Below, piece after piece: positions 9,258 through 62,877 of a stretch of DNA of 64,000 bases. The notes under the pieces are model-generated. The model saw only the letters and a list, made by a program, of their open reading frames with translations, did no database searches and was not told where the DNA came from. Position numbers and translations under genes: made by a program. Each line of letters opens with the position of its first letter. The stretch's first letter is position 1. The stretch is from a virus. Its lineage: Duplodnaviria; Heunggongvirae; Uroviricota; Caudoviricetes. The stretch spans positions 46,839-110,838 of the IMG/VR virus record IMGVR_UViG_3300008085_000025, one strand, 5' to 3'.

Positions 9258-10358
9258 ATGAAACATTACAACTTTACAGTCTTTATTGGCAGATTCCAGC
9301 CGCCCCACAGAGGCCACCTCGAAACAATTCGCAAAGCTTTAGAAATCTCCGATAAGCTTATTCTTATCTTAGGAAGTTCGAACGCTTCGCAAAACATTAA
9401 AAACCCTTTCACGGACGCCCAGAGGGCACATATGATTCTTTCTGCTTTTCCTAACGATGCTGATCGCATCAGCATTCAGCATGTTCAAGACAGGTTTTAT
9501 CAAAACAAATATTGGATTACCGATGTCCAGAAAACCGTGTTCGATGCAATCTCTCGTAGTGGGTGGCATGACAAGCCTTCAGTTGCTTTGATGGGTCATA
9601 AAAAGGATGAAAGCTCGTGGTATCTTGATTCGTTCCCACAGTGGGATTTTATCGAAACCGACTCTATCACGATCAGCGAAGACGATGATGTGATCATGCA
9701 TTCAACAGATATTCGAGAACTTTATTACAAGGGAATGCTTGGGTACATTCGTCACCCACTTGGTTCCGAGACCACATATAAGTTTATGAAGGATTTCATG
9801 ACTACCCCGGAATATGAAAACTTGAAACGGGAATATGAGGACGGTCTGGACTATGAAAGGCTGTTTGCAGCATATCCAGAAAAGTGGGCCGTTAATTTTC
9901 TATGTGCAGATGCGGTTGTGATCCAGTCCGGTCATATTCTGCTTGTCAGACGGGCTGAGAGACCCGGTAAGGGGCTTTGGGCACTTCCGGGTGGCCACGT
10001 AAACTCTACCGAGACAACATTCGACGCGGCGATCAGAGAGCTTAAGGAAGAGACCTCTCTAAAGGTTCCAGAAAAGGTTCTTAGAGGGAGTATGGTCGAT
10101 TCAAAGTTCTTCGATCACCCTGATCGTTCTTTGCGTGGCAGGGTTCATACCAAGCGTGGTAGAACAGTTACAATGGCTTATTGCTTTTCATTGAACGACG
10201 GCCATAAACTGCCCAAGGTCGTTGGGGCCTCTGATGCTAGTGAAGTCAAGGGTGGTGCCGCATGGTGGTTCCCAATTAGTGAATTTAAGGTAATGAGGAA
10301 CCAAATGTTTGAAGACCATTATGACATTGCAAATTATTTCATTGATTCAATGGAGTGA
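9258..10358 (+). CDS. natV: Bifunctional nicotinamide-nucleotide adenylyltransferase / Nudix hydrolase (NatV-like)
   Basis: N-terminal GRFQPPHRGH (HxGH nucleotidyltransferase motif); C-terminal Nudix box GGHVNSTETTFDAAIRELKEETSL. Confidence 0.9.
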   Translation: MKHYNFTVFIGRFQPPHRGHLETIRKALEISDKLILILGSSNASQNIKNPFTDAQRAHMILSAFPNDADRISIQHVQDRFYQNKYWITDVQKTVFDAISRSGWHDKPSVALMGHKKDESSWYLDSFPQWDFIETDSITISEDDDVIMHSTDIRELYYKGMLGYIRHPLGSETTYKFMKDFMTTPEYENLKREYEDGLDYERLFAAYPEKWAVNFLCADAVVIQSGHILLVRRAERPGKGLWALPGGHVNSTETTFDAAIRELKEETSLKVPEKVLRGSMVDSKFFDHPDRSLRGRVHTKRGRTVTMAYCFSLNDGHKLPKVVGASDASEVKGGAAWWFPISEFKVMRNQMFEDHYDIANYFIDSME

Positions 10359-10399
10359 GACCAGTACTAATATAAATCTAAACACGGATAGGTATCTAA

Positions 10400-10407
10400 T
10401 ATAAATA
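10400..10407 (+). promoter_or_regulatory. T4-type late promoter motif TATAAATA upstream of the HNH gene
   Basis: Exact TATAAATA about 28 nt upstream of the ATG. Confidence 0.4.
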
Positions 10408-10434
10408 CCTGATAGAAATGATTAGGTATTTCGC

Positions 10435-11160
10435 ATGAACTATAAAAATGTTTATGATTCAATTATTGATAAAGCTTTAGAAAGAAAACTGGATGTTAAC
10501 ACGTACTATGAAAAACATCATATAATTCCAAAGTGTTTGGGAGGTTTGGATGTAAATGAAAATTTAGTTTATTTAACAGCAAGAGAACACTATATATGTC
10601 ACCGCTTGTTGATAGATATTCATAAAAATAATGTAGAAAATTACACGAAAGTACTTCAAGCATTCATGCCCATGAGAGCTAAAAGTAAATATCATGAAGA
10701 GAGAGTAACCAACAGTAAAATGTATGAAAAGGTAAAAAATATATTATATGGGGATGGGGGATTACTGTTGGGTGAAAACCATCATTGGCATGGTAGAAAA
10801 CATACAAAAGAAACAAAAAAGAAAATGTCTAGGATAGCTATAGCCAAATGTCAAACATCCCATGAACGAAAAAGGTTAAAAACAATGGCCCTTAATAGAA
10901 CACCAGAACATAAGAAAAAAATACGAGATGCCCTCGTTGGAAGAAAAACGACAGAAGAAGCTAGAAAAAAAATGAGTGAATCTCATAAAGGAAAACAAAT
11001 GAACGAAAAAAATGGAAAGTCAAAAAAAGTGATTATAGATGGTAAAGAATATCCATCACTACGAGAAGCATCCAGACAACTCGGTATTAATGTTCACAAA
11101 TTATACTACAGGGTTGCGTTATCTTCATCCAAAAAATTTTCCAATTATTATTGGAAATAA
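10435..11160 (+). CDS. HNH homing endonuclease with NUMOD repeats
   Basis: HHIIPKCLGG...N (HNH); repeated GRKHTKETKKKMS / KGKQMNEKN NUMOD3-like motifs; C-terminal IDGKEYPSLREASRQLGI NUMOD1-like helix. Confidence 0.8.
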   Translation: MNYKNVYDSIIDKALERKLDVNTYYEKHHIIPKCLGGLDVNENLVYLTAREHYICHRLLIDIHKNNVENYTKVLQAFMPMRAKSKYHEERVTNSKMYEKVKNILYGDGGLLLGENHHWHGRKHTKETKKKMSRIAIAKCQTSHERKRLKTMALNRTPEHKKKIRDALVGRKTTEEARKKMSESHKGKQMNEKNGKSKKVIIDGKEYPSLREASRQLGINVHKLYYRVALSSSKKFSNYYWK

Positions 11161-11219
11161 AGATTTTATGATGGGCATAGAATCTTTTGCTTTATAAAAA
11201 CATGATTAAGGAGTTTAAC

Positions 11220-12617
11220 ATGAACAAATTAAGCAACAATCCTATATTGAATTGCGACTCGTACAAGACCAGCCACTTTGGGTTCATGGCACCCGGAACC
11301 ACCCGACAGTATTCTTATATTGAAGCTCGAAAGGGTGGAGAGTATGACACTTCAGTATTCTTCGGTCTTCAACATTTAATCAAAACCTCATTAATGAAGC
11401 CCGTTACGATGGAAATGGTTAATCAGGCCGAAGCCGTTATCACAGCACACGGTCTTCCATTCAACCGGAAAGGTTGGGAATACATAGTCAACGAATGTGA
11501 CGGGTTTTTGCCTTTAAGTATTCGCGCAGTTCCAGAAGGAATGCACGTACCAGAAGGAAATGTGATGGTTGTTGTCGAGAACACCGATGAGAATTGTGCG
11601 TGGGTCACTTCCTATGTGGAAACCTCTTTGCTTCGTGGCGTGTGGTACGGAACTACGGTCGCAACGCGCTCATATCGTTTCCGGGAATTGATTTCCAGTT
11701 ACTTGGAAGAAACTGGTGACCCCGACCTCATCGACTTCAAGTTTGTTGATTTTGGGGCACGTGGGGCATCTTCTAAGCAGTCGAGTGAGATTGCTGGTGC
11801 AGCACACTTGGTCAATTTCATGGCAACTGACAATATTGTTGGGATTCTCGCCTGTATGGAGTACTATAATTCTCCGGTTGTAACAGGGTTTTCAATTCCG
11901 GCGACGGAGCACACGGTTACTATTGCAGAAGGTCCGGGCAACGAGAAGAAGTTTTTTGAGCGCGCCATTGATGTATACGGTGGCGAGGGTAAGATGGTTT
12001 CTGTAGTTAGCGACACTTATTCGTTCGAAAACGCTCTTAATATTTGGGCAGAGCTTCGGGAAAAGATAGAAGAAAAGGGTGGTACTGTGGTGATTCGTCC
12101 AGACAGTGGAAATCCCACAGAAATGGTTATGCTTGCGTTGAACAAGCTTTCCGATTCTTACGGCTACACTATAAATGACAAGGGTTTTAAAGTTTTGAAT
12201 CCAGCGGTCAGAATCATTCAAGGTGATGGTGTGAATCTCTCCGAAGTCGAAAATATTTTGAAGACCATGAAGGTCTCAGGCTTCAGTGCAGATAATATTA
12301 CATTTGGGTGTGGTGGATATTTGCTTCAAGATTTGACGAGAGATACGTTACGTTTTGCTATGAAGGGCTCGTATGTGGAAGTTGATGGAGAAATTCGAGA
12401 AGTATGTAAAACTACTGAGACTGACCCCACTAAGGCTTCTAAGGCGGGTCGGGTTATATTAGTTAAGCGATCCGGTGTCCGACTACCCATCACCATTAGA
12501 GAGGAAGAGAAACTTCCGACAGACATAGAACTACTGGAAGAGGTATTCCTGAATGGAAAATTGGTACGGGATATGACGTTTGAAGAGGTCCGCACCAACG
12601 CCCGAACAAATTGGTAA
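11220..12617 (+). CDS. nadV: Nicotinamide phosphoribosyltransferase (NadV/NAMPT)
   Basis: NCDSYKTSHF signature, full-length about 465 aa; start set at ATG after AAGGAG RBS (ORF track begins at 11187). Confidence 0.9.
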   Translation: MNKLSNNPILNCDSYKTSHFGFMAPGTTRQYSYIEARKGGEYDTSVFFGLQHLIKTSLMKPVTMEMVNQAEAVITAHGLPFNRKGWEYIVNECDGFLPLSIRAVPEGMHVPEGNVMVVVENTDENCAWVTSYVETSLLRGVWYGTTVATRSYRFRELISSYLEETGDPDLIDFKFVDFGARGASSKQSSEIAGAAHLVNFMATDNIVGILACMEYYNSPVVTGFSIPATEHTVTIAEGPGNEKKFFERAIDVYGGEGKMVSVVSDTYSFENALNIWAELREKIEEKGGTVVIRPDSGNPTEMVMLALNKLSDSYGYTINDKGFKVLNPAVRIIQGDGVNLSEVENILKTMKVSGFSADNITFGCGGYLLQDLTRDTLRFAMKGSYVEVDGEIREVCKTTETDPTKASKAGRVILVKRSGVRLPITIREEEKLPTDIELLEEVFLNGKLVRDMTFEEVRTNARTNW

Positions 12618-20814: not shown

Positions 20815-21519
20815 ATGTCAAATAAAGCAATTGACGAAAGATTCGAGGATGGTTCTTCTTTTAGGATTGATCCACCAAAAATTAAGCATTACGTACAAAG
20901 CTTGCAATTAAATGTTCACCACTTTTATCTGTCTGGAGAGATAGAGGATGATATTAACAAGTATTCAGACCTACTCAATGTGTTAAAAACCGCTAATGAA
21001 GAGGATACTATAGTAATTTACATCAACAGTGAAGGCGGTTCTCTTAGAATGGCAATACAGATTGTGAACTCTATGGTCGCATCTAGAGCCAAAGTGATTA
21101 CTTCTTTAGACGGAGATGCCCATTCTGCAGCGACTTTGATTTTTTTATCTGGGGAAGAGTATATCATCAATCCGAATTGTTCTTTTATGATACACAACTA
21201 TTCTGGCGGTTTTGCAATCGGAAAGGGGCATGAAATTAGAACGAGAGTAGAGCATGTAAACGGCTATGTGGAAAAAATAATGAGAAAGTTTTATGAGAAA
21301 ATTCTTACAGAAGAAGAGATCGACCATGTAGTTGATGGTCGAGATATCTGGATGGATTCCGACCAGCTTATTGCTCGTTTAGAAGCTGGAGAGAAGAATT
21401 CTTTACTTGAGACAGAAGACATTACTCCCAAAACCCCCTTGGATGGTAAATTGGTATCCAGTGGAAGAAAAAAAACTACTAAGAAAAAGACTAAAATAAA
21501 ATTGTCCGAAGATACTTGA
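20815..21519 (+). CDS. ClpP-family (S14) serine peptidase
   Basis: IVIYINSEGGSLRMAIQIVNSM / GDAHSAATLIFLSG (Ser) / MIHNY (His) align with ClpP catalytic blocks. Confidence 0.8.
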   Translation: MSNKAIDERFEDGSSFRIDPPKIKHYVQSLQLNVHHFYLSGEIEDDINKYSDLLNVLKTANEEDTIVIYINSEGGSLRMAIQIVNSMVASRAKVITSLDGDAHSAATLIFLSGEEYIINPNCSFMIHNYSGGFAIGKGHEIRTRVEHVNGYVEKIMRKFYEKILTEEEIDHVVDGRDIWMDSDQLIARLEAGEKNSLLETEDITPKTPLDGKLVSSGRKKTTKKKTKIKLSEDT

Positions 21520-21528
21520 CGGGTTGGA

Positions 21529-21536
21529 TATAAATA
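21529..21536 (+). promoter_or_regulatory. T4-type late promoter motif TATAAATA upstream of ssrA
   Basis: Exact TATAAATA about 10 nt before the tmRNA acceptor piece. Confidence 0.45.
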
Positions 21537-21544
21537 GGTATAAT

Positions 21545-21935
21545 AATAAGCATTCGTTGAGACGAGACTGAAAGCGAACGACACGCGGGTTCGACTCCCG
21601 CCGTCTCCAAAAGCGTCTACAAGTGCCAACAGAGGAAGGATAGGGCATCCTCCCGGCGTAGCAAACAAAAAAGCCTTAGACGAGTTGGGTAATGCGTCAG
21701 AAACCCGGTAAATCCGGGAAATGGTGGACGCTTTTGGAGGGGGCGAAACTGGAAATCGACCGGGCGTTATTAGGAATCGAGGAGAATCGTCAACAAAGAC
21801 GCAAAAATGATAGTAAAATAAATGCAGCAAATGACGCTGACTTCGACAGCAACGCTAACGGCTTCGCCCTAGCAGCTTGATCGAATGCGGGTTAGAGCAA
21901 TATCCGTATAACCAAAGCTCAGAAGGGGACAAGCT
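21545..21935 (+). ncRNA. ssrA: tmRNA (ssrA), apparently circularly permuted two-piece form
   Basis: Upstream T-arm GCGGGTTCGACTCCCGC then an acceptor 3' strand CCGUCUCCA(AAA), where a CCA trinucleotide is present only if the acceptor strand is taken as GCCGUCU/discriminator C or CGCCGUC/U, and is followed by AAA under the CGUCUCC/A reading; about 110-nt intervening segment closed by perfect 11-nt inverted repeat CCAAAAGCGTC/GACGCTTTTGG; then GGGGGCGAAACUGGAAAUCGACCGGG (cf. E. coli GGGGCUGAUUCUGGAUUCGACGGG); tag ORF GCA AAT GAC...GCA GCT TGA = ANDADFDSNANGFALAA; terminator soon after. Confidence 0.65.
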
Positions 21936-21957
21936 AACTTGTCCCCTTCTCTATTTT
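21925..21957 (+). terminator. rho-independent terminator of ssrA
   Basis: GGGGACAAG-ctaa-CTTGTCCCC then TTCTCTATTTT. Confidence 0.75.
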
Positions 21958-22009
21958 AATTGTTGCCAGTAGTATTGCAAATACCGTCTCATATCAATAT
22001 AATGATCAA

Positions 22010-33120: not shown

Positions 33121-33939
33121 TTGAAAATAGGAATAGTTTTGGAAAAGGCCAAATTTTCCAAAGAAAAGGTTATAGCGTATCATGCTACCAGTAAAAAGAA
33201 TCTCCGCTCTATTATCAAAAATGGGTTGATAATGAACTACAGGGGCGGGGGCTTGGGTGATGATGAGATGAACACCGATTTCGGGTTTGGCTATGAGCCA
33301 CACGAGGGGGTGTATTTTACTACCAATTTTGGAAAAGCAAAAAATTTTGCTCGTTGGATAGATAGTAGTGAGCCCGCAATAATAATTGCCGAGGTTCAGC
33401 CGAAATCTTCTTATTTAGACGAAGATGATTTATTTCAGATATTAGATAAAATCGACAGTAAGATTTATGGCGAAGTTTTACATATCCTAGACAAATACAA
33501 CCATGACGACTCTGACGAAATGTTTGAAGAAATTGATCAAATGGTTGAAACAATAACTAAAGAAACCACAAAAACTCTTTCTAAAAACTTGAAAGAGTTT
33601 TATAACTTAAATCCGGTAACGGTTGAAAACATTATCAAACGTTCTACCCTTCACATAAAATCTCTTGCTAGTAAATTGGTTGATGGACGTATTACGGGCA
33701 GTACGGATATAAGAGACGAACAAGACGGTCTCAGAAAGATTTTTAAAAATATAGTCAGGAAATATGTTGGAACAGAAAGTGACAAGATTTCTAAAACTTT
33801 TTCTATTCCATCAAATGTAGGATTCAGGGGTTCTAACAAAATCGTCGGGATAATAGATTTGGCCGGAAAAAAAGCTTGGGGCAAACACATACCGTCCGAC
33901 TTTAGTATGGTTGATGCCCCGGTCGAACTTTTAGATTAA
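33121..33939 (+). CDS. ART-fold protein, H-Y-E class (Tpt1/KptA- or PARP-like NAD+-binding lobe) with about 170-aa C-terminal extension
   Basis: AYHATSKKNLRSIIKNGL ... GVYFTT ... PAIIIAEVQ parallels KptA LYHGTASRFLDEIKKQGL ... YVHLS ... PVILTVKAQ; TTG start. Confidence 0.5.
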   Translation: MKIGIVLEKAKFSKEKVIAYHATSKKNLRSIIKNGLIMNYRGGGLGDDEMNTDFGFGYEPHEGVYFTTNFGKAKNFARWIDSSEPAIIIAEVQPKSSYLDEDDLFQILDKIDSKIYGEVLHILDKYNHDDSDEMFEEIDQMVETITKETTKTLSKNLKEFYNLNPVTVENIIKRSTLHIKSLASKLVDGRITGSTDIRDEQDGLRKIFKNIVRKYVGTESDKISKTFSIPSNVGFRGSNKIVGIIDLAGKKAWGKHIPSDFSMVDAPVELLD

Positions 33940-34520
33940 CGGCCCAAAAAAGATTTTAGTTCTGTAATAGATTGCTGTGCTGTAACGTGAACAATACCTA
34001 TTCCGCCAGCATCTCTCCATGGGCCTATGGAATGCATCCTGTCATCAATTAAAATACTGTTGTTTGTGGCGTAGTTGGCCTTGTCTGAAGATTTCTTTAC
34101 CACTTCCACTCTAATTTGCGGACCAAACACTTTTTTAACCCACTCTTTCTTTTGTTCCGCCCCGTCTTTTGGAGTATACCCGGAAGCGGTCAATATATAA
34201 TAATTTTTAAAGTTTGAATGGACGAATCTCATCAACTCAAAAGCATCATCCATAACGGGCAAATTGAGAAAAAATGGCTTAACTTCTTTATCATATCTAC
34301 TCAAGGTAGACCAAAATTTTTTAGAAGGTGTAGTATCTTTGTCTAAACCCAACATTTCTCTGGCCCCCGCAGAGAAATCGGCCAAAACCCCGTCCATATC
34401 TACTGCTATGGTGTACTTATCAGTAGCGTTTACTGATTCTTGTAAAAATATTTCTTTTAAAATCATTTCAATTTTCCTAAAAGTTGTTCTTTGTTCAGTT
34501 TGAATCCACTGTCCACCCAT
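33936..34520 (-). CDS. HAD-family 5'(3')-deoxyribonucleotidase-like phosphatase
   Basis: AVDMDGVLADF HAD motif I. Confidence 0.7.
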   Translation of the reverse strand: MGGQWIQTEQRTTFRKIEMILKEIFLQESVNATDKYTIAVDMDGVLADFSAGAREMLGLDKDTTPSKKFWSTLSRYDKEVKPFFLNLPVMDDAFELMRFVHSNFKNYYILTASGYTPKDGAEQKKEWVKKVFGPQIRVEVVKKSSDKANYATNNSILIDDRMHSIGPWRDAGGIGIVHVTAQQSITELKSFLGR

Positions 34521-35650
34521 TGTTTTTTGAGTGAATTGATCATTTTACCTAATTCTGGTCCGGGTGTAAAACCCCGTTTCAATAAATCTCCACCAGAAAC
34601 GGGGAATGGTGGAGCATTTTCTGCTGCTTTTGCCGCTGATACAGCAGAACTGTCACCAACTGCCAACCCATATTGACGAACAGTTTCGGGTTTAATTCCA
34701 TTGAAAAAGATTTCATCAAGAAAAGAAACACCTTTTACGTTTTCCCGCGCCACTATGTAGTTTATCAAATTGGCTTCTGGTCTAGACATTTTCATTCTCG
34801 ACACGAAATTCATTGTCTCCGACGGTGTTGCGTCCAACATTGTGGCTATGACCGCCTCTGGGCGAATCTCAGGCAGTTTTGCAGCTTCGGCTCCGTGCCG
34901 TATTGCTGAACTGCTTGTTGGCATAGAAATGGCCCCTAGGACGCCACATTTTTTCATTTCTTTGAATGCTTGTTTCATATTTGGTTGTATTACCATTTTA
35001 CTTAACTCTGACCAAATTCTTTCCGCCGATATTTTACGTAATCCTCCAACATTTCTTGAAATAGATTGTAAAGTTTGTTCGTCTGACGCTCGTCCTTCTT
35101 GTTTGGCCAAGAATCTGAAATAACGAAGAATCCGGAGATAATCTTCTTGAATTCTTTCATCTGGGTCGCCGACAAAGCGGGTTTGCTTGTTCTTCAAGTC
35201 TTCATGGCCACCAAAGTAATCATGAAGTTTTCCGTCCATATCCACCGACATAGCGTTATAGGTCAAATCCCTTCTTCTGGCGTCTTCCTTAAAATCGCGA
35301 GTCCATTCCACTTCAGCATGTCTACCGTCAGTATCTTTGTCAATTCTTAAAGTGGTTATTTCATAAGGTTCATCATTTATAACAAAAGTTAATGTTCCAT
35401 GTTCTGATCCGGTATCAACAACTCTAAGGTTGTTTACACGCCCAATCTTTTCCATCTCTTCCGGGGTAGCGGTTGTTGCTAGGTCGATGTCTTTGGGGGT
35501 TTTTCCGAGTAAAGCATCACGCACAGCACCACCTACGATTCGTATTTCGTATCCATTATTTTTGAATATACGACCTAATTTTTTAACATCCGGGCCGATG
35601 ATGGATGAAAGGTCTGGTTCTTTCGCCTCGAATAGCTTAATTATCTTCAT
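34463..35650 (-). CDS. cca: tRNA nucleotidyltransferase (class II CCA-adding enzyme)
   Basis: IVGGAVRDALLGKTPKDIDL head motif and EDARRRDLTYNAM (cf. E. coli LEDDLKRRDLTINAL). Confidence 0.85.
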   Translation of the reverse strand: MKIIKLFEAKEPDLSSIIGPDVKKLGRIFKNNGYEIRIVGGAVRDALLGKTPKDIDLATTATPEEMEKIGRVNNLRVVDTGSEHGTLTFVINDEPYEITTLRIDKDTDGRHAEVEWTRDFKEDARRRDLTYNAMSVDMDGKLHDYFGGHEDLKNKQTRFVGDPDERIQEDYLRILRYFRFLAKQEGRASDEQTLQSISRNVGGLRKISAERIWSELSKMVIQPNMKQAFKEMKKCGVLGAISMPTSSSAIRHGAEAAKLPEIRPEAVIATMLDATPSETMNFVSRMKMSRPEANLINYIVARENVKGVSFLDEIFFNGIKPETVRQYGLAVGDSSAVSAAKAAENAPPFPVSGGDLLKRGFTPGPELGKMINSLKKQWVDSGFKLNKEQLLGKLK

Positions 35651-46720: not shown

Positions 46721-46869
46721 TACCCCGGATACCTTTTCTTTAACTCCAATACCAATAAACTCAGTTGATTTTTTATATCATTCAAAAAAACAAATTCTCA
46801 ATTATTTCAGTATTACCATGAATGGCACCATTGGGCCTAATTATAGAAAAAGAAAATGACCCAGTCGTG

Positions 46870-52286: not shown

Positions 52287-54587
52287 ATGAAATTGAATGT
52301 CGCCGGTTCGAAGGCTACTGGCTCTGCTGTTGCGGGATCGCAGCAATTTTCGATGGCAATGAATGCCAAGGCTTTTCATACTCTTTCGTCTACCCTCTAT
52401 AAGGACAAGTTTGGGGCTATTATTCGTGAAATTTGCTCCAATGCTTACGATGCTCATTTGATGGTCGGTACGCCTGAGCGTCCTTTCGTACTTACTTTTC
52501 CCGACCGTATTGATTCTGAATTGGTCATCCGTGATTTTGGCCCCGGTATTTCTCCCGACGACATTAGCGGCGTGTACTGCCGGTTCTTTGAATCGACCAA
52601 GGATCAAGACAATAACACCGTGGGGGCTTTTGGGTTGGGTTCTAAGACCCCGTTTGCGTATACTGATACCTTCGCCGTCACTTCGATCCACAAGGGCGTG
52701 AAGCGCATCTACACTGCCTTCAAGGATGAAGGGATGCCGAATCTCAAGTTGATGGCCGAAATGGAAACGGACGAGGAATCAGGTCTGGAAGTTTCCATCC
52801 CGGTTCAGGGCAAGGATATCAGCTCTTTCCACAATGCTGTCATTCGTGAACTGCGGTTTTTCCCAGTGAAGCCTGTATCGAATAGGCAATGGGATTGGGC
52901 TGATTGGGAAGTCGCGATGGATTTTGGTTCTGTCCAGTTTTTCAAGAGTCAGAATGCTGTCATGCGGGGCTTTTTTGTTCAGATCGGTCCGGTCGGATAT
53001 CGCATCGACAAAGGCATGATTACTGAATACGCTCAGAACAAGGGTATTTCCTTGTCTCCAATGACTAAGCATTTGTTAGAAATGTCTGTTGAACAAAGGT
53101 ACTACCACCCCGAGCGCCATAGCGCCATGTTGGACATGCCGATTGGCACAGTTGAAGTTCAGCCTAGCCGTGAAGGTTTGCACTATACTGACGAAACCTG
53201 TCAGAACATTCTTGATGCTATTGGCTCTGCCGAACAGAAGGTTGCCGATGAAATGGTTCAGCGTCTAGATAGTGCTTATGCTACGGGGTGTAAGACTTTC
53301 TTTGATACTGTAAATCAAATGCCACAGTTTTTGCGTGGGACGTTGACTAATATTACTGATTTTAAAAAGAACTACGAGCCGTTCTTCGTTGACCCGAGTG
53401 GTAATTTGAAGGTTGTGTGGGATACCAATATTGTTTCCTCTTGTACCCTTGGCAAGATTGATTTCGGCGACGAACGGGGCAGTGTTGTTAGAACTCCGCT
53501 GGTTTGGTCCGAGTACGACTATAAGAATAACAAGACTGTCAGATATGGAGGCATTGAATTGTTTAGGGCAGATCGGGTTTATATCAAGGATGAGGCGTTT
53601 GCATACAAGTCTCGTATGCATAATCATGATAATGATTCTCTCGTGTTGTACTTCATTGAACCGGCTGACGGACAATCTGTTGATGATCTGGTAGCATATT
53701 TTGAAAAGTTTTTCGAGGTTGTGCGGGTTAGCAGTTTGGACAAAAACGTTTCTCGTTCCAGAACCAGCATTACAGGTGGTAAGGTTCGTGCGTGGTTTGA
53801 TTTGGGAAAGTGGTTGGACACCAATTACGTTTCTCAATTTAGCCACAAACGTTCTTTGTATGCTCACAATGTCCAGTCGGTATTCGATGCGAATCTGAAT
53901 GACATTACTGAACCTACTGTAGTGCTTCGTACTCATAACAATTCATTAGTATATGATTGCGATGATGTCTATAACAAACTTTCCCTTGCCGCTATGCTTG
54001 GGGATGCTGGCTATAAGATCATTGCGATCCCGAAAAGTGTGAAATACGATAACGAAAACCTGTGTGAAATTGAGGAATTGACCGACGATCATCACCGGAT
54101 TCTGCGTGACCGGCTGACAGAAATTCAGGGCGCGCAAGCCTTGAATGTTTGTATCGACTTCGTTTGTTCATTCAACGCATCGGTTCGAAGTATGGTAGAT
54201 CGAAAGTGGTTGAAAGGCACGGTCGAGGATTACGGGTTTGATGATGAAGCGTTCCGTAAAGCTCAGGACTCATTACCGATGATGAATCCTATGCGGAGAC
54301 ATGGGGATTTGGAAATTGTCGAGGCTATTGTTGGTTCAGCTACAAAATACCAGAACATGGACGAACTCTTCGAAGTCGCGAATAAGATGACTGGAATTGA
54401 TTATGTTCCTTCCAAAATGTTGGAAAAAATCGAAAATGAAGTTTCGTTGCAGACTATTATGATGGAATATTTTAATAGAAACAACTACATTGTCGAGGCA
54501 ATTTTCATCAGCAAGGGTTATCCGATGGTAGATGAGACTTTTTCTATTGATTTCAAACCTAAAATTCTGGAATTGGTAGAAAAGTAA
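52287..54587 (+). CDS. rIIA: rIIA protein (GHKL ATPase-fold N-terminus)
   Basis: KAFHTLSSTLYKDKFGAIIREICSNAYDAH, RDFGPGIS and GAFGLGSKTPF track T4 rIIA [38 protein letters not shown] and GGFGLGSKSPF. Confidence 0.9.
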   Translation: MKLNVAGSKATGSAVAGSQQFSMAMNAKAFHTLSSTLYKDKFGAIIREICSNAYDAHLMVGTPERPFVLTFPDRIDSELVIRDFGPGISPDDISGVYCRFFESTKDQDNNTVGAFGLGSKTPFAYTDTFAVTSIHKGVKRIYTAFKDEGMPNLKLMAEMETDEESGLEVSIPVQGKDISSFHNAVIRELRFFPVKPVSNRQWDWADWEVAMDFGSVQFFKSQNAVMRGFFVQIGPVGYRIDKGMITEYAQNKGISLSPMTKHLLEMSVEQRYYHPERHSAMLDMPIGTVEVQPSREGLHYTDETCQNILDAIGSAEQKVADEMVQRLDSAYATGCKTFFDTVNQMPQFLRGTLTNITDFKKNYEPFFVDPSGNLKVVWDTNIVSSCTLGKIDFGDERGSVVRTPLVWSEYDYKNNKTVRYGGIELFRADRVYIKDEAFAYKSRMHNHDNDSLVLYFIEPADGQSVDDLVAYFEKFFEVVRVSSLDKNVSRSRTSITGGKVRAWFDLGKWLDTNYVSQFSHKRSLYAHNVQSVFDANLNDITEPTVVLRTHNNSLVYDCDDVYNKLSLAAMLGDAGYKIIAIPKSVKYDNENLCEIEELTDDHHRILRDRLTEIQGAQALNVCIDFVCSFNASVRSMVDRKWLKGTVEDYGFDDEAFRKAQDSLPMMNPMRRHGDLEIVEAIVGSATKYQNMDELFEVANKMTGIDYVPSKMLEKIENEVSLQTIMMEYFNRNNYIVEAIFISKGYPMVDETFSIDFKPKILELVEK

Positions 54588-54608
54588 GATGAAAAGTGGT
54601 GAAGGGGC

Positions 54609-54637
54609 TTGACCAAGTCCCTGATACCTGATAGAAT
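54609..54637 (+). promoter_or_regulatory. sigma70-type promoter TTGACC-N17-TAGAAT (rIIB)
   Basis: Boxes with 17-nt spacer in the rIIA-rIIB gap. Confidence 0.5.
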
Positions 54638-54668
54638 GTAATTTCCACAACTACATAGGAGAAGTGAA

Positions 54669-55769
54669 ATGAGTGGTATCAACTTTATCAAGACCGGACA
54701 GAACCTTACCGTGTTTATCGACGGTCGTCCGATCACGTTTCCGCTGACAGACCATCGTATTGAGGATGTTCTTGAAGCGATCCGCAATGATGATGAACAG
54801 GCTATCCGGCAACTGATCAACTTCAAGCAGACTGTAGCGAATGTCTCGGAAGGTCGCATCAAATTTGATCCGATGACTCGGACCCTGACTTTCAAGGGTG
54901 AGCCGCTGCATAATGCGATCATTGATCGTTTGTGTGCGTTGTTCGAAGAACGTCTGCCAATCAAGAACCTTCTTCGATTCCTTGACAATTTGATGGAAAA
55001 CCCGGACTATCGTGCGGTGAATGAATTGTATCGCTTCATCGAAGCGTGTGATCTTCCCATCACCCCCGATGGTCATTTCCTCGCTTACAAGATCGTTCGT
55101 CAAGACTATATGGACATTTACAGTGGTCAGTTCGACAACCACGTGGGTCAGATTCCGACCATGGACCGCAACAGGGTCAATCCTGATTCTAATCAGACTT
55201 GTTCTTCTGGTTTGCACGTTTGTTCTAAGAGGTATCTCCCGCAATATGGTGGATTCTTCGGTAAAAGTTCCGATACCAGAATCATGGTTGCTAAGGTTCA
55301 TCCTCGTGACGTGGTTGCGGTTCCGATGGATTACAATAACGCCAAAATGCGTGTTTGCCGCTATGAGGTCGTGGATGAAATTCCTTACGATGAAGTAATG
55401 ACCGATCTTCGGATGTCTGGCTACGTCATCGACAGTTACGGCGCACTTGATGAAGATTTTGAGGATGGGTGTGATGATGACTCCGTAGATGATTCATTCG
55501 AAGAATTCGAAGAAGATTGGAGCGGCATTGGGGAAGAAACCGGGGAAGAAGCTGAGGAAGAAGCTGAGGACGTTATTGTCACTAGTAATACCCCAAGTCG
55601 CCCCGCAGTCACCGGGAAGCTGACGAAGCATCAGGTTCGCGATATTGACCGTCTGCTGCTCGATGGTGAAATGTCTATCGCTTCCATCGGTCGTCTCTAC
55701 AACGTCAACGAATCGACCATTCGCAAGATTCGCGATGGTTTGATCTGGACCCACGTTACTGGACGATAA
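54669..55769 (+). CDS. rIIB: rIIB protein
   Basis: CSSGLHVCSKRYLPQYGG...VAKVHPRDVVAVPMDYNNAKMRVCRYEVVDE matches the T4 rIIB C-terminal core. Confidence 0.9.
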   Translation: MSGINFIKTGQNLTVFIDGRPITFPLTDHRIEDVLEAIRNDDEQAIRQLINFKQTVANVSEGRIKFDPMTRTLTFKGEPLHNAIIDRLCALFEERLPIKNLLRFLDNLMENPDYRAVNELYRFIEACDLPITPDGHFLAYKIVRQDYMDIYSGQFDNHVGQIPTMDRNRVNPDSNQTCSSGLHVCSKRYLPQYGGFFGKSSDTRIMVAKVHPRDVVAVPMDYNNAKMRVCRYEVVDEIPYDEVMTDLRMSGYVIDSYGALDEDFEDGCDDDSVDDSFEEFEEDWSGIGEETGEEAEEEAEDVIVTSNTPSRPAVTGKLTKHQVRDIDRLLLDGEMSIASIGRLYNVNESTIRKIRDGLIWTHVTGR

Positions 55770-58338: not shown

Positions 58339-58581
58339 ATGGAAAACAGCAGCGTGTCCTACACTTTGACCTCAATCCTCATCACTGTATTCATGTTGCC
58401 GGTGGATATTGTTATTGCTATCTTTGGTGATGACCCGGATACTTTTCGGTTCTACATTGGAATTCTTTTCGTCTTTGCATACTGCGTTCTCATTGGCATT
58501 TTGGGCACCATCGCGGTAGTTTTTGTCATTCTTTCGGGGTTTCACATGCTGGGAATGATCTTGTTCGAGTGGTTCCCGTGA
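58339..58581 (+). CDS. small membrane protein
   Basis: Two hydrophobic helices. Confidence 0.4.
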   Translation: MENSSVSYTLTSILITVFMLPVDIVIAIFGDDPDTFRFYIGILFVFAYCVLIGILGTIAVVFVILSGFHMLGMILFEWFP

Positions 58582-59213
58582 TGAGAATGTTGGGAGAAAT
58601 CCCAGAACGGGTCAATGTGGCGGTTTCTGGTGGGGTAGATTCTATGGTCCTTCTTGACTTTTTAATCAACGGTCGTAGGAAGATCAATGTGTTGCACTAT
58701 CATCATGGGACGGAACACGCCGACGACGCTTTTTCTTTCGTCAAAAATGTTTCTGAATCCTTGGGCGTGGGGTTTATTTCTGATGAACTTCGTGATCCCG
58801 TTCCCGAAAAGAGGTCCAAAGAAGATTTCTGGCGTGAACGTCGATATTCATTTTTCGACAGGGCAGAAAAACACGGATATCCGGAACCTATTTTACTGGC
58901 GCATCATCTTGATGATGTTTTAGAAACTTGGCTGTTTTCCAGTTTTCACGGAACACCTAAGATCGTTCCGTACATGCGGGGAAATTGTTTTCGGCCTATG
59001 TTGATGGCTAAGAAAGAAGAAATTTTGGAATGGGCAGAGCGTAATTCTGTTCCTTATATCAATGATCCTTCAAACGAGAATACTGGATTCATGCGAAACA
59101 AGATTCGTCATGAGCTTGTCCCCAAGGTTCTCGAAGTCAATCCGGGAATTCATAAAGTTCTTGCAAAGAAGGTACAAGAGCAGTATAATTCACTGATACA
59201 GTTAAGTGGTTGA
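58569..59213 (+). CDS. tilS: PP-loop ATP pyrophosphatase, TilS-like (tRNA(Ile)-lysidine synthetase catalytic domain)
   Basis: VAVSGGVDSMVLLDFL (SGGxDS PP-loop) and HHLDDVLETWLF (cf. TilS HHLDDQAETFL); short single-domain form. Confidence 0.65.
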   Translation: MVPVMRMLGEIPERVNVAVSGGVDSMVLLDFLINGRRKINVLHYHHGTEHADDAFSFVKNVSESLGVGFISDELRDPVPEKRSKEDFWRERRYSFFDRAEKHGYPEPILLAHHLDDVLETWLFSSFHGTPKIVPYMRGNCFRPMLMAKKEEILEWAERNSVPYINDPSNENTGFMRNKIRHELVPKVLEVNPGIHKVLAKKVQEQYNSLIQLSG

Positions 59214-62458: not shown

Positions 62459-62535
62459 GGGACCGTAGCTCAATCGGTTAGAGCGTCCGACTCATAATCG
62501 GCAGGTTGGAGGTTCGAGTCCTCCCGGTCCCACCA
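62459..62535 (+). tRNA. tRNA with CAU anticodon (Met elongator-like or Ile2/lysidine)
   Basis: GGGACCG/CGGTCCC acceptor, GCTC-AATCGGTTA-GAGC D-arm, CTCATAA anticodon loop, GGAGG-TTCGAGT-CCTCC T-arm, ACCA; close to E. coli tRNA-Met(elong). Confidence 0.8.
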
Positions 62536-62846: not shown

Positions 62847-62877
62847 TAGTATCAGGTAATGCGAAAGGAACAGACAC

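Follow-up and report, generated by a model that had tools for sequence, protein, structure and literature searches.

The window that we analyze here is a stretch of 64,000 nucleotides (nt) from a phage of the class Caudoviricetes (positions 46,839 to 110,838 of the IMG/VR record IMGVR_UViG_3300008085_000025). It contains a gene for transfer-messenger RNA (tmRNA), flanked by genes for a ClpP-like protease and a primase. The gene is circularly permuted, so that the T-arm and acceptor 3′ strand come before the acceptor 5′ strand (21739-45) and the tag frame. Probably this is a functional phage-encoded tmRNA gene of the two-piece type, similar to the betaproteobacterial form. The core claim, a two-piece tmRNA in a phage, is correct but of an already documented kind. 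What sets this copy apart is an end that lacks an encoded CCA, combined with a CCA-adding-type enzyme of the phage, and above all a pseudoknotted RNA module in the spacer between the two pieces, which is also found beside phage tRNA genes.

Two programs recognize the gene. ARAGORN places a permuted tmRNA on the plus strand at 21519-21971, with the tag AANDADFDSNANGFALAA. The Rfam 15 model RF04321 (tmRNA_permuted) matches 21552-21880 with 60.9 bits (E=2.4e-9), aligned over the full model (1-213) and above its gathering score of 47 bits. In a permissive Rfam scan of the region the sole other meaningful match is RF01850, the betaproteobacterial two-piece tmRNA. This model is the best of its clan and aligns over its full length, promoter hexamers and terminator included, but with 33.3 bits the match stays below the gathering score of 84. 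An earlier reading of the letters alone (the sequence-only reading) had proposed a two-piece permuted tmRNA, which the permuted mode of ARAGORN and RF04321 now support; RF01850, one of the covariance models that it named as a check, falls short of its threshold. The T-arm, acceptor 3′ strand, inverted repeat, D-analog, tag and terminator that it listed are all where it placed them.

To compare the gene we use 15 relatives (L numbers are our labels for loci). Ten were retrieved through primase homologues of 46-77% identity (L063, L065, L067-L074), and all ten carry a permuted tmRNA in the gap between the ClpP and primase genes. Five further relatives have a permuted tmRNA as well (L001, L002, L003, L005 and L056), in L001 just upstream of the primase. 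RF04321 gives the relatives 83-117 bits. Six of them (L002 and L070-L074) also pass the threshold of RF01850 with 96-117 bits. Hence the lineage is beta-like, and not of the alphaproteobacterial or cyanobacterial sub-type that had been suggested for it. The alpha model is reached by two relatives, over its full length in L005, partially and marginally in L069.

The acceptor stem is complete once the strand CGUCUCC is read with A21609 as the discriminator. In this register GGGGGCG pairs with CGUCUCC over seven base pairs (bp): G1-C72, G2-C71, G3·U70, G4-C69, G5·U68, C6-G67 and G7-C66. The alanine identity set is present (7-bp acceptor stem, G3:U70 and A73). The sequence-only reading had drawn a G-G mismatch in this helix and was unsure whether the G·U pair sits at 3:70. 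Because the register gives the full 7 bp, with G·U exactly at 3:70, these doubts are gone and the stem is a canonical alanine-identity stem. Among relatives the two strands covary (CUACUCC/GGGGUAG, CAGCUCC/GGGGCUG, CUUCUCC/GGGGAAG, CAUCUCC/GGGGAUG). The covarying positions are 5, 6, 67 and 68, and U70 is invariant in all.

The same register settles the 3′ end, for which two readings had been offered. CGUCUCC followed by A is the right one, and the reading in which the strand ends in CCA is wrong: with the CCA inside CUCCA as the 3′ end, the acceptor stem would shrink to 4 bp. Since A21609 directly precedes AAAG (CTCCA, then AAAG), CCA is not encoded in the window. All 15 relatives read CTCCACCA and then AAAG. 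The tmRNA region, including the absent CCA, is base-for-base identical in three independent assemblies.

Unconstrained cofolding of 21552-21609 plus CCA with the coding piece returns the T-arm, the intermolecular acceptor stem and a segmented P2 helix (CG/CG, AGCG/CGUU, CUGA/UUAG and CGA/UCG). From 21739 on, the acceptor 5′ strand and the D-analog read GGGGGCGAAACTGGAAATCGAC. Sequence, covariation and cofolding together show that the acceptor piece and the coding piece of about 220 nt pair through the acceptor stem and P2 to form an alanine-accepting tRNA-like domain. P2 is weaker than in the relatives, with five non-canonical pairs in the covariance-model alignment.

The coding piece continues with the region of the first pseudoknot (PK1), which is 79-91% identical to relatives with the same kind of spacer (type A, see below) and 65% identical to L065. 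The tag is 18 amino acids (aa) long, starts with an alanine resume codon and has a hydrophobic end, ...LAA. Compared with L063 it differs by four synonymous changes (GAC>GAT, TTC>TTT, GCA>GCC and TGA>TAA) and an in-frame indel; this is the pattern of a translated frame, and the tag frame is under selection. Behind the tag, the terminator (stem at 21921-21950) stands as first reported, whereas the accompanying statement that there is no pseudoknot block does not: a small H-type pseudoknot occupies 21890-21920. It corresponds to the 3′ hairpin of RF01850, and its second stem covaries across the 15 relatives (UUAAGC/GCUUAA, UGGAC/GUCCA, UAGAGU/ACUCUA and CCAU/AUGG).

The gene also has a promoter of its own. 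Its -35 hexamer shares bases with the stop codon of the ClpP-like gene, and the predicted transcription start is near 21551-21552. The promoter block aligns with the promoter columns of RF01850 and is kept in L063 and L065. A second motif overlaps it: ATAAATAG(G)TAT at 21527-21544 resembles the T4 late promoter TATAAATA. It also lies upstream of the tmRNA in L001, L068 and L069, and is kept even where a TTGACA-type -35 hexamer is absent. A T4-late-like motif TATAAATA is found within the spacer. The conservation of the upstream motif hints at dual or late expression of the tmRNA.

Synteny ties the gene to its genome. A ClpP-family gene lies at the same position in L060-L075, as part of a conserved ligase-ClpP-(tmRNA)-primase block. 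The Xanthomonas jumbo phage XacN1 has the ligase-Clp-primase block in common, but a mere 186-nt gap at the tmRNA position. Exact matches to the primase lie on public contigs of up to 256,834 bp and the relatives on contigs of 242-350 kb. Among 50,697 GenBank phage records neither blastn of the gene nor megablast of 24 kb finds a DNA match. The gene adds one more clade to a documented phenomenon, that of jumbo-type phages tied to XacN1 by their ligase-ClpP-primase block. In this clade a two-piece tmRNA of the beta type belongs stably, and in conserved synteny, to the replication and early-gene module. Two local variations were seen. In L063, the closest relative of differing sequence, an alternative-oxidase gene (PF01786, PTOX-like) is inserted between tmRNA and primase (2379-2966). 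Genes of the Acb1 family (anti-CBASS phosphodiesterase) lie just upstream of the ligase/ClpP block in L067 (1455-1985) and L071 (1-21).

The spacer that separates the two pieces is 129 nt long, not about 110 nt as first estimated. The perfect inverted repeat reported to close it, CCAAAAGCGTC (21607-21617) and GACGCTTTTGG (21728-21738), is real and part of a longer, imperfect inverted repeat of 38 nt. In all relatives the spacer opens with a stem right after the CCA and closes about 4 nt before G1 (usually UGAU). It is a bare hairpin of 30-39 nt in L002, L005, L067 and L073. In the others the hairpin tip holds an extra 65-146 nt. Six tmRNA genes (window, L001, L056, L063, L068 and L069) have the module that we call type A, and at least five unrelated inserts occur besides it (L003, L065/L072, L070, L071 and L074; for example L065 2697-2760, L072 ~2740-2800 and L003 2577-2722). 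Type A and the insert of L065/L072 (type B) have the words CCAG(C/U)GU..AAUAUGG in common; type B may be a reduced type A. Judged by these sequences, the tip of the spacer hairpin is an insertion hotspot.

The type-A module folds into a closing stem (P1), two hairpins (P3 and HB) and two pseudoknot-like pairings. In the first of these (PK1 of the module), the P3 loop RGGY pairs with a downstream RCCY. In the second (PK2), three bases 5′ of P3 pair with three bases of the HB loop. HB has the invariant loop GGUAAUG, and GGUAAUGCGUCAG within HB is invariant in eight of eight copies. Two of the eight copies are free-standing and were found in a metagenome scan with a 20-base core pattern. The copy in L055 lies behind a TATAAT-like hexamer, 22 nt upstream of a tRNA-Asp, and the one in L058 comes after a tRNA array and before a small, signal-peptide-like open reading frame (ORF).

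Covariation supports this fold. We curated an alignment of the eight sequences (A3), from which the optional hairpin was removed in three copies and in which P1 was trimmed to 8 bp. In this alignment 97.1% of the cells are paired, compared with 82.8% in shuffles and 31-48% in slid controls. Fourteen pairs change on both sides, among them all eight pairs of P1, and none of 500 shuffles reaches the observed values. RNAalifold independently recovers P1, P3 and HB, and draws the short, tentative P2 of the module differently. The G·U pairs of the module fit the tmRNA strand only. The precursor segment is more stable than its shuffles, with z = -4.8 in the window and -5.9 in L001.

The module is also strongly conserved. 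Among the relatives that have it, the core matches that of the window at 75-81% identity, and still at 75-79% in phages whose primases are only about 57% identical. In the same phages the T-arm reaches 72-84% and the PK1 region of the tmRNA 79-82%. Far less conserved are the P2 strands (55-67%), the tag (33-58%), the 3′ pseudoknot (42-48%), the terminator (41-49%) and the promoter (about 40%). With the more distant of the relatives that have the module, identity is 33-49% for tag, 3′ pseudoknot and terminator. In the spacer, hitherto treated as discarded sequence, selection is thus as strong as in the tRNA-like domain. The module could nevertheless be selfish or neutral and play no part for the tmRNA: a small mobile element of RNA or DNA, inserted into hairpin tips that tolerate it. 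Such an element would be patchy among close relatives, just as type A is replaced by unrelated inserts (L003, L070, L071, L074) or a bare hairpin (L002, L005, L067, L073), and would have copies outside tmRNA genes (L055, L058). We nevertheless consider this origin rather unlikely, because the module covaries at the RNA level with G·U pairs that fit the transcribed strand only, many of its unpaired bases are invariant, and it is as conserved as the T-arm in phages whose primases share only about 57% identity. Furthermore, it has neither repeats nor target duplications nor coding capacity.

The fold that selection maintains in the spacer matches no class that we searched. Rfam 15 (4227 models, E<=10) has no same-strand match over 21610-21738 or over the free-standing copy at L055 785-905 (a 121-nt query), and thus none from the HDV family. 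Literature searches on the sequence words of the module or on structured tmRNA spacers returned nothing relevant. The module pattern has no true copy in one genome per species of 185,579 bacterial and archaeal species. Further pattern scans found only the contig of L001 in IMG/VR and three true matches in metagenomes; the rest are chance (L057, L059, L076-L081). When the window and 614 kb of loci are searched with a covariance model built from the eight copies (R1), no further copy turns up, and a near-match at 62855 is due to chance. Likenesses seen by eye to the TPP riboswitch, twister, pistol, hatchet, the glnA RNA and the 530 loop of 16S are short common words without model support. The topology does not fit an HDV-like or theta ribozyme, a nested double pseudoknot whose P1 begins at the cleavage site and pairs internally and whose P2 closes the fold: here the closing stem joins both ends and encloses two hairpins whose loops pair with linkers. 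ORFs in the spacer (ANKKA and a stop in L001, and a 62-aa ORF in the window) were rejected; they are not conserved.

What could such a module do? The options that we considered are a cis-acting maturation element, a passenger small RNA freed by tRNA-processing enzymes, and a selfish insert. Our best guess is a role in cis in the maturation of the flanking tRNA-like ends, in which the module would guide, gate or perform the cleavage. More specifically, the module could be an undescribed class of structured RNA, self-cleaving, ligand-gated or nuclease-recruiting, that releases or times the 3′ ends of tmRNA and, in its free-standing form, of tRNA. The absent CCA and the CCA-adding enzyme of the phage would then form a maturation switch for ribosome rescue. 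This wider proposal is tentative, and possible rather than probable. If it is true that the fold controls or performs processing, it would give a new RNA class and a handle on how phages regulate ribosome rescue.

From the gene order we infer that the gene yields two RNAs. A single early transcript, made by the host RNA polymerase, would start at about 21552 and end at the terminator near 21957. A cut by RNase P 5′ of G21739 would produce the coding piece. The spacer would be removed endonucleolytically 3′ of A21609, for which a route of the RNase Z type fits a CCA-less precursor. Cleavage must be followed by the addition of the CCA that the gene lacks, plausibly by the phage's own CCA-adding-type enzyme or by that of the host. 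The phage enzyme would be the product of a nucleotidyltransferase gene in the same window, 13 kb from the tmRNA. It matches NF009814 (CCA-adding enzyme) over the full length with 222.8 bits, below the curated cut-off of 290. Plausibly it is the CCA supplier, a candidate enzyme of either CCA-adding or poly(A) specificity. A CCA-less gene and a phage-encoded enzyme of this type make a directly testable maturation pathway.

The mature RNA would be charged by the alanyl-tRNA synthetase. Judged by homology, it would then rescue stalled ribosomes together with host SmpB and EF-Tu, and append AANDADFDSNANGFALAA. The ALAA end of the tag would serve as a ClpXP-type degron that sends truncated proteins to proteolysis. 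Extra ribosome rescue when infection yields truncated mRNAs is a plausible benefit to the phage. The ClpP-family gene next door could degrade the tagged proteins or could act in head maturation, and any link to the tmRNA is speculative; NCBIfam ranks its product nearer to ClpP-related prohead proteases.

Several observations weigh against a functional gene with a working spacer module. Processing, charging and tagging of the RNA are all things that we infer. Relative to all 15 relatives examined the window has lost its CCA, while the four tRNA genes of the phage (56233-62535) all encode theirs. Its copy is the lowest-scoring of the family with RF04321, and its RF01850 score (33 bits against a threshold of 84) is poor as well. 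P2a has an A·C pair adjoining the tRNA-like domain and an AA/GG internal loop. Folding finds an alternative 17-bp helix that could sequester the acceptor 3′ strand in the precursor. In addition, GAGACG (21559-21564) perfectly complements CGUCUC (21602-21607), and the mini-helix that can form in a model of the acceptor piece alone would compete with the two-piece acceptor stem; this self-complement is not seen in L001, the single relative checked. A second PK1 stem upstream of the resume codon was sought and none was assigned, while the CGUC/GACG hairpin is present and highly conserved. SmpB gave no hit in the window by tblastn, a search of low sensitivity, and hence the host's SmpB is presumably used. 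For the module, the analysis comprises only eight copies, some of them close kin, in an alignment partly curated by hand.

Could the window copy then be a decaying or repurposed tmRNA that is no longer chargeable? At most, such an RNA would be a decoy that binds SmpB or ribosomes and dampens trans-translation in the host, like the RNA of phage DS6A, which consists of the tRNA-like domain (TLD) only. The loss of CCA in the window lineage alone, the weakened P2a with the lowest covariance-model scores of the family, and the helices that compete for the acceptor 3′ strand would all agree with decay, and inhibitory TLD-only phage RNAs provide a precedent (PMC4131195, PMC11915505). However, the tag frame is intact and shows only synonymous changes and an in-frame indel with respect to L063. 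G3:U70 and A73, T-arm, D-analog, promoter and terminator are intact, too, and the sequence is fixed across independent samples. Accepted tmRNAs without an encoded CCA are known (PMC11915505), and a CCA-adding-type enzyme is encoded nearby. We therefore regard decay as distinctly unlikely and keep to a functional two-piece tmRNA.

Sharkady and Williams reportedly set out the betaproteobacterial two-piece tmRNA lineage in 2004. The window copy has the elements of RF01850 in the same order: P2 strand, T-arm, acceptor 3′ strand, hairpin spacer, acceptor 5′ strand, D-analog, P2 and PK1-region hairpin. The 3′ part agrees as well, with a tag of the AND...ALAA type, a single small 3′ pseudoknot whose loop resembles CCUUG.UACC, and the terminator. 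In contrast to the model, the window copy is phage-borne, does not encode CCA, has an 18-aa tag and has a spacer of 129 nt instead of about 29 nt.

Permuted tmRNA genes in phages have been surveyed before. Of 18,146 phage genomes 402 have ssrA, in 133 unique forms, 53 of which are permuted according to ARAGORN; 50 of these 53 come from marine or aquatic phages (Buchholz et al., PMC9004378). A 2025 tmRNA database holds 79 unique sequences from phages (PMC11915505). Like the phage described here, the marine and aquatic ones (OM43 phage Melnitz, pelagimyophages and cyanophages; PMC9004378) are large and lytic and have their permuted ssrA behind an early-type promoter. In Melnitz, too, a structured RNA is joined to ssrA, in this case a glutamine riboswitch of the glnA type fused to an alpha-type two-piece ssrA (PMC9004378). 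There, the tmRNA is alphaproteobacterial and the riboswitch sits in the 3′ domain, whereas here the tmRNA is beta-like and a module of no known class sits in the spacer. The mycobacteriophage Bxz1 group, Bacillus phage G and the TLD-only RNA of DS6A (PMC4131195) are further phage-borne cases with a presumed role in supporting or manipulating ribosome rescue, but the Bxz1 group and phage G have the standard, non-permuted order and DS6A has no tag.

Two features of the window copy have partial precedents. Accepted tmRNA genes without encoded CCA exist, and the CCA position does not always read CCA (PMC11915505, Fig. 1 legend). Permuted tmRNA genes can also have cargo in the intervening sequence, namely a tRNA-Ala gene or a repetitive element (PMC11915505). 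In those genes, too, the spacer tolerates insertions, including structured RNAs that tRNA enzymes cut. The cargo described here is neither a tRNA nor a repeat, but a conserved pseudoknotted fold that is present in several phage lineages and also free-standing beside tRNA genes. Theta ribozymes (minimal HDV-like ribozymes) adjoin phage tRNA genes (PMC10879173) and are similar in being small structured RNAs beside tRNA-like 3′ ends of phages with a plausible role in end maturation. They differ in that the outer helix of our module joins the ends of the element; no P1 starts at the first nucleotide and pairs internally.

Two further explanations of the locus carry very little weight. That the region encodes a 62-aa protein (21692-21880) is scarcely credible: the ORF exists and public gene callers list it as a protein here and in L060 (2683-2871), but it has no Pfam hit, its upstream part is not conserved as protein (the same ATG in L001 opens a different frame and stops before the tag), and RNA structure accounts for the DNA throughout. 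The ORF is the tag frame read upstream through the spacer, as the sequence-only reading had proposed, and the public annotation here thus carries a spurious protein. An origin of the tmRNA from host DNA, through chimeric assembly or as a piece of ssrA at the attachment site of a prophage, is just as hard to believe: tmRNA matches in viral collections often are one-piece ssrA at contig ends or beside integrases, and the exact T-arm/acceptor pattern finds 46 loci in IMG/VR that are mostly standard one-piece ssrA and never permuted, but this gene is embedded among phage replication genes with synteny across more than ten divergent phages, is identical in three assemblies, has its own promoter and terminator, and lies in a window with rIIA/rIIB and other phage hallmark genes.

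Table 1. Coordinates of the tmRNA gene, its spacer module, copies of the module elsewhere, and two associated genes. Positions refer to the window unless a locus is named.
Feature	Position	Strand	Details
ClpP-family serine protease gene	20815-21519	+	directly upstream; Ser-His-Asp triad conserved; syntenic partner in all close relatives
Sigma-70-type promoter	21516-21544	+	TTGACG-17 nt-TATAAT; 11/12 consensus matches
Acceptor piece	21552-21609	+	58 nt; P2 strand, T-arm, acceptor 3′ strand, discriminator A; from covariance-model alignment and cofolding
P2 strand of acceptor piece	21552-21584	+	
T-arm	21585-21601	+	GCGGG/UUCGACU/CCCGC
Acceptor 3′ strand	21602-21608	+	CGUCUCC, then discriminator A21609
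Intervening segment	21610-21738	+	129 nt; P1, type-A core, leader UGGA
Closing stem P1	21610-21620 with 21724-21734	+	
Type-A structured core	21621-21723	+	
Hairpin P3	21634-21653	+	GG-AAGGAU / AGGGC loop / AUCCUCC; helix 4, 2 pairs changed on both sides
PK1 of type-A module	21643-46 with 21673-76	+	P3-loop GGGC with GCCU; helix 5, 2 pairs changed on both sides, cells 100% paired
Hairpin HB	21679-21698	+	GACG / AGUUGGGUAAUG / CGUC; helix 3, 2/3 pairs changed on both sides
PK2 of type-A module	21685-87 with 21630-32	+	HB-loop UUG with CAG
Optional hairpin within element	21704-21718	+	CCCGG-UAAAU-CCGGG; only window, L001, L069
Leader	21735-21738	+	UGGA
Start of coding piece	21739-21760	+	acceptor 5′ strand GGGGGCG (G1 = 21739, predicted RNase P site) and D-analog AAACUGGAAAUCGAC
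P2 strands of coding piece and PK1-region hairpin	21761-21803	+	P2 strands 21761-21789; hairpin CGUC-AACAAA-GACG 21788-21801
Tag frame	21824-21880	+	resume codon GCA to stop TGA (21878-80); AANDADFDSNANGFALAA, then stop; ARAGORN
3′ H-type pseudoknot	21890-21920	+	S1 GGUUA 21890-94/UAACC 21909-13; S2 GAGC 21895-98/GCUC 21917-20
Intrinsic terminator	21921-21957	+	13-bp stem (21921-21950), then U-tract
Class II nucleotidyltransferase gene	34463-35650	-	best match CCA-adding enzyme; PolyA_pol 117 bits, PolyA_pol_RNAbd, tRNA_NucTran2_2
Type-A copy, window	21610-21734		
Type-A copy, L001	3395-3515		
Type-A copy, L056	1925-2023		
Type-A copy, L063	2038-2136		
Type-A copy, L068	2451-2552		
Type-A copy, L069	2628-2745		
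Free-standing type-A copy, L055	804-903	-	metagenome scan, 20-base core pattern
Free-standing type-A copy, L058	1674-1771	-	metagenome scan, 20-base core pattern

In the window as a whole, the gene content is typical of phages or accessory: PhoH, DHFR, an NAD-dependent ligase, the ClpP-family protease, the primase, rIIA/rIIB and four tRNA genes. The rIIA and rIIB homologues (354 and 238 bits) lie at 52287-55769, directly upstream of a tRNA-Thr/tRNA-Val pair. Genes similar to homing endonucleases are encoded in the window as well. One of them, an ORF with a NUMOD3 motif (10435-11160), splits an NAD salvage pair (9258-12617) that consists of NadM-Nudix (9258-10358) and NAMPT (11187-12617). The product of 33121-33939 (+) has a weak match to the PARP catalytic domain (22.8 bits, below threshold) and is a possible ADP-ribosyltransferase. 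A protein with a TilS N-terminal domain (lysidine synthetase, 123 bits) is encoded at 58569-59213 (+), near a tRNA with the anticodon CAU (62459-62535). Since a TilS-type protein is encoded nearby, this tRNA, which is called 'Met' (CAT), could be tRNA-Ile2.

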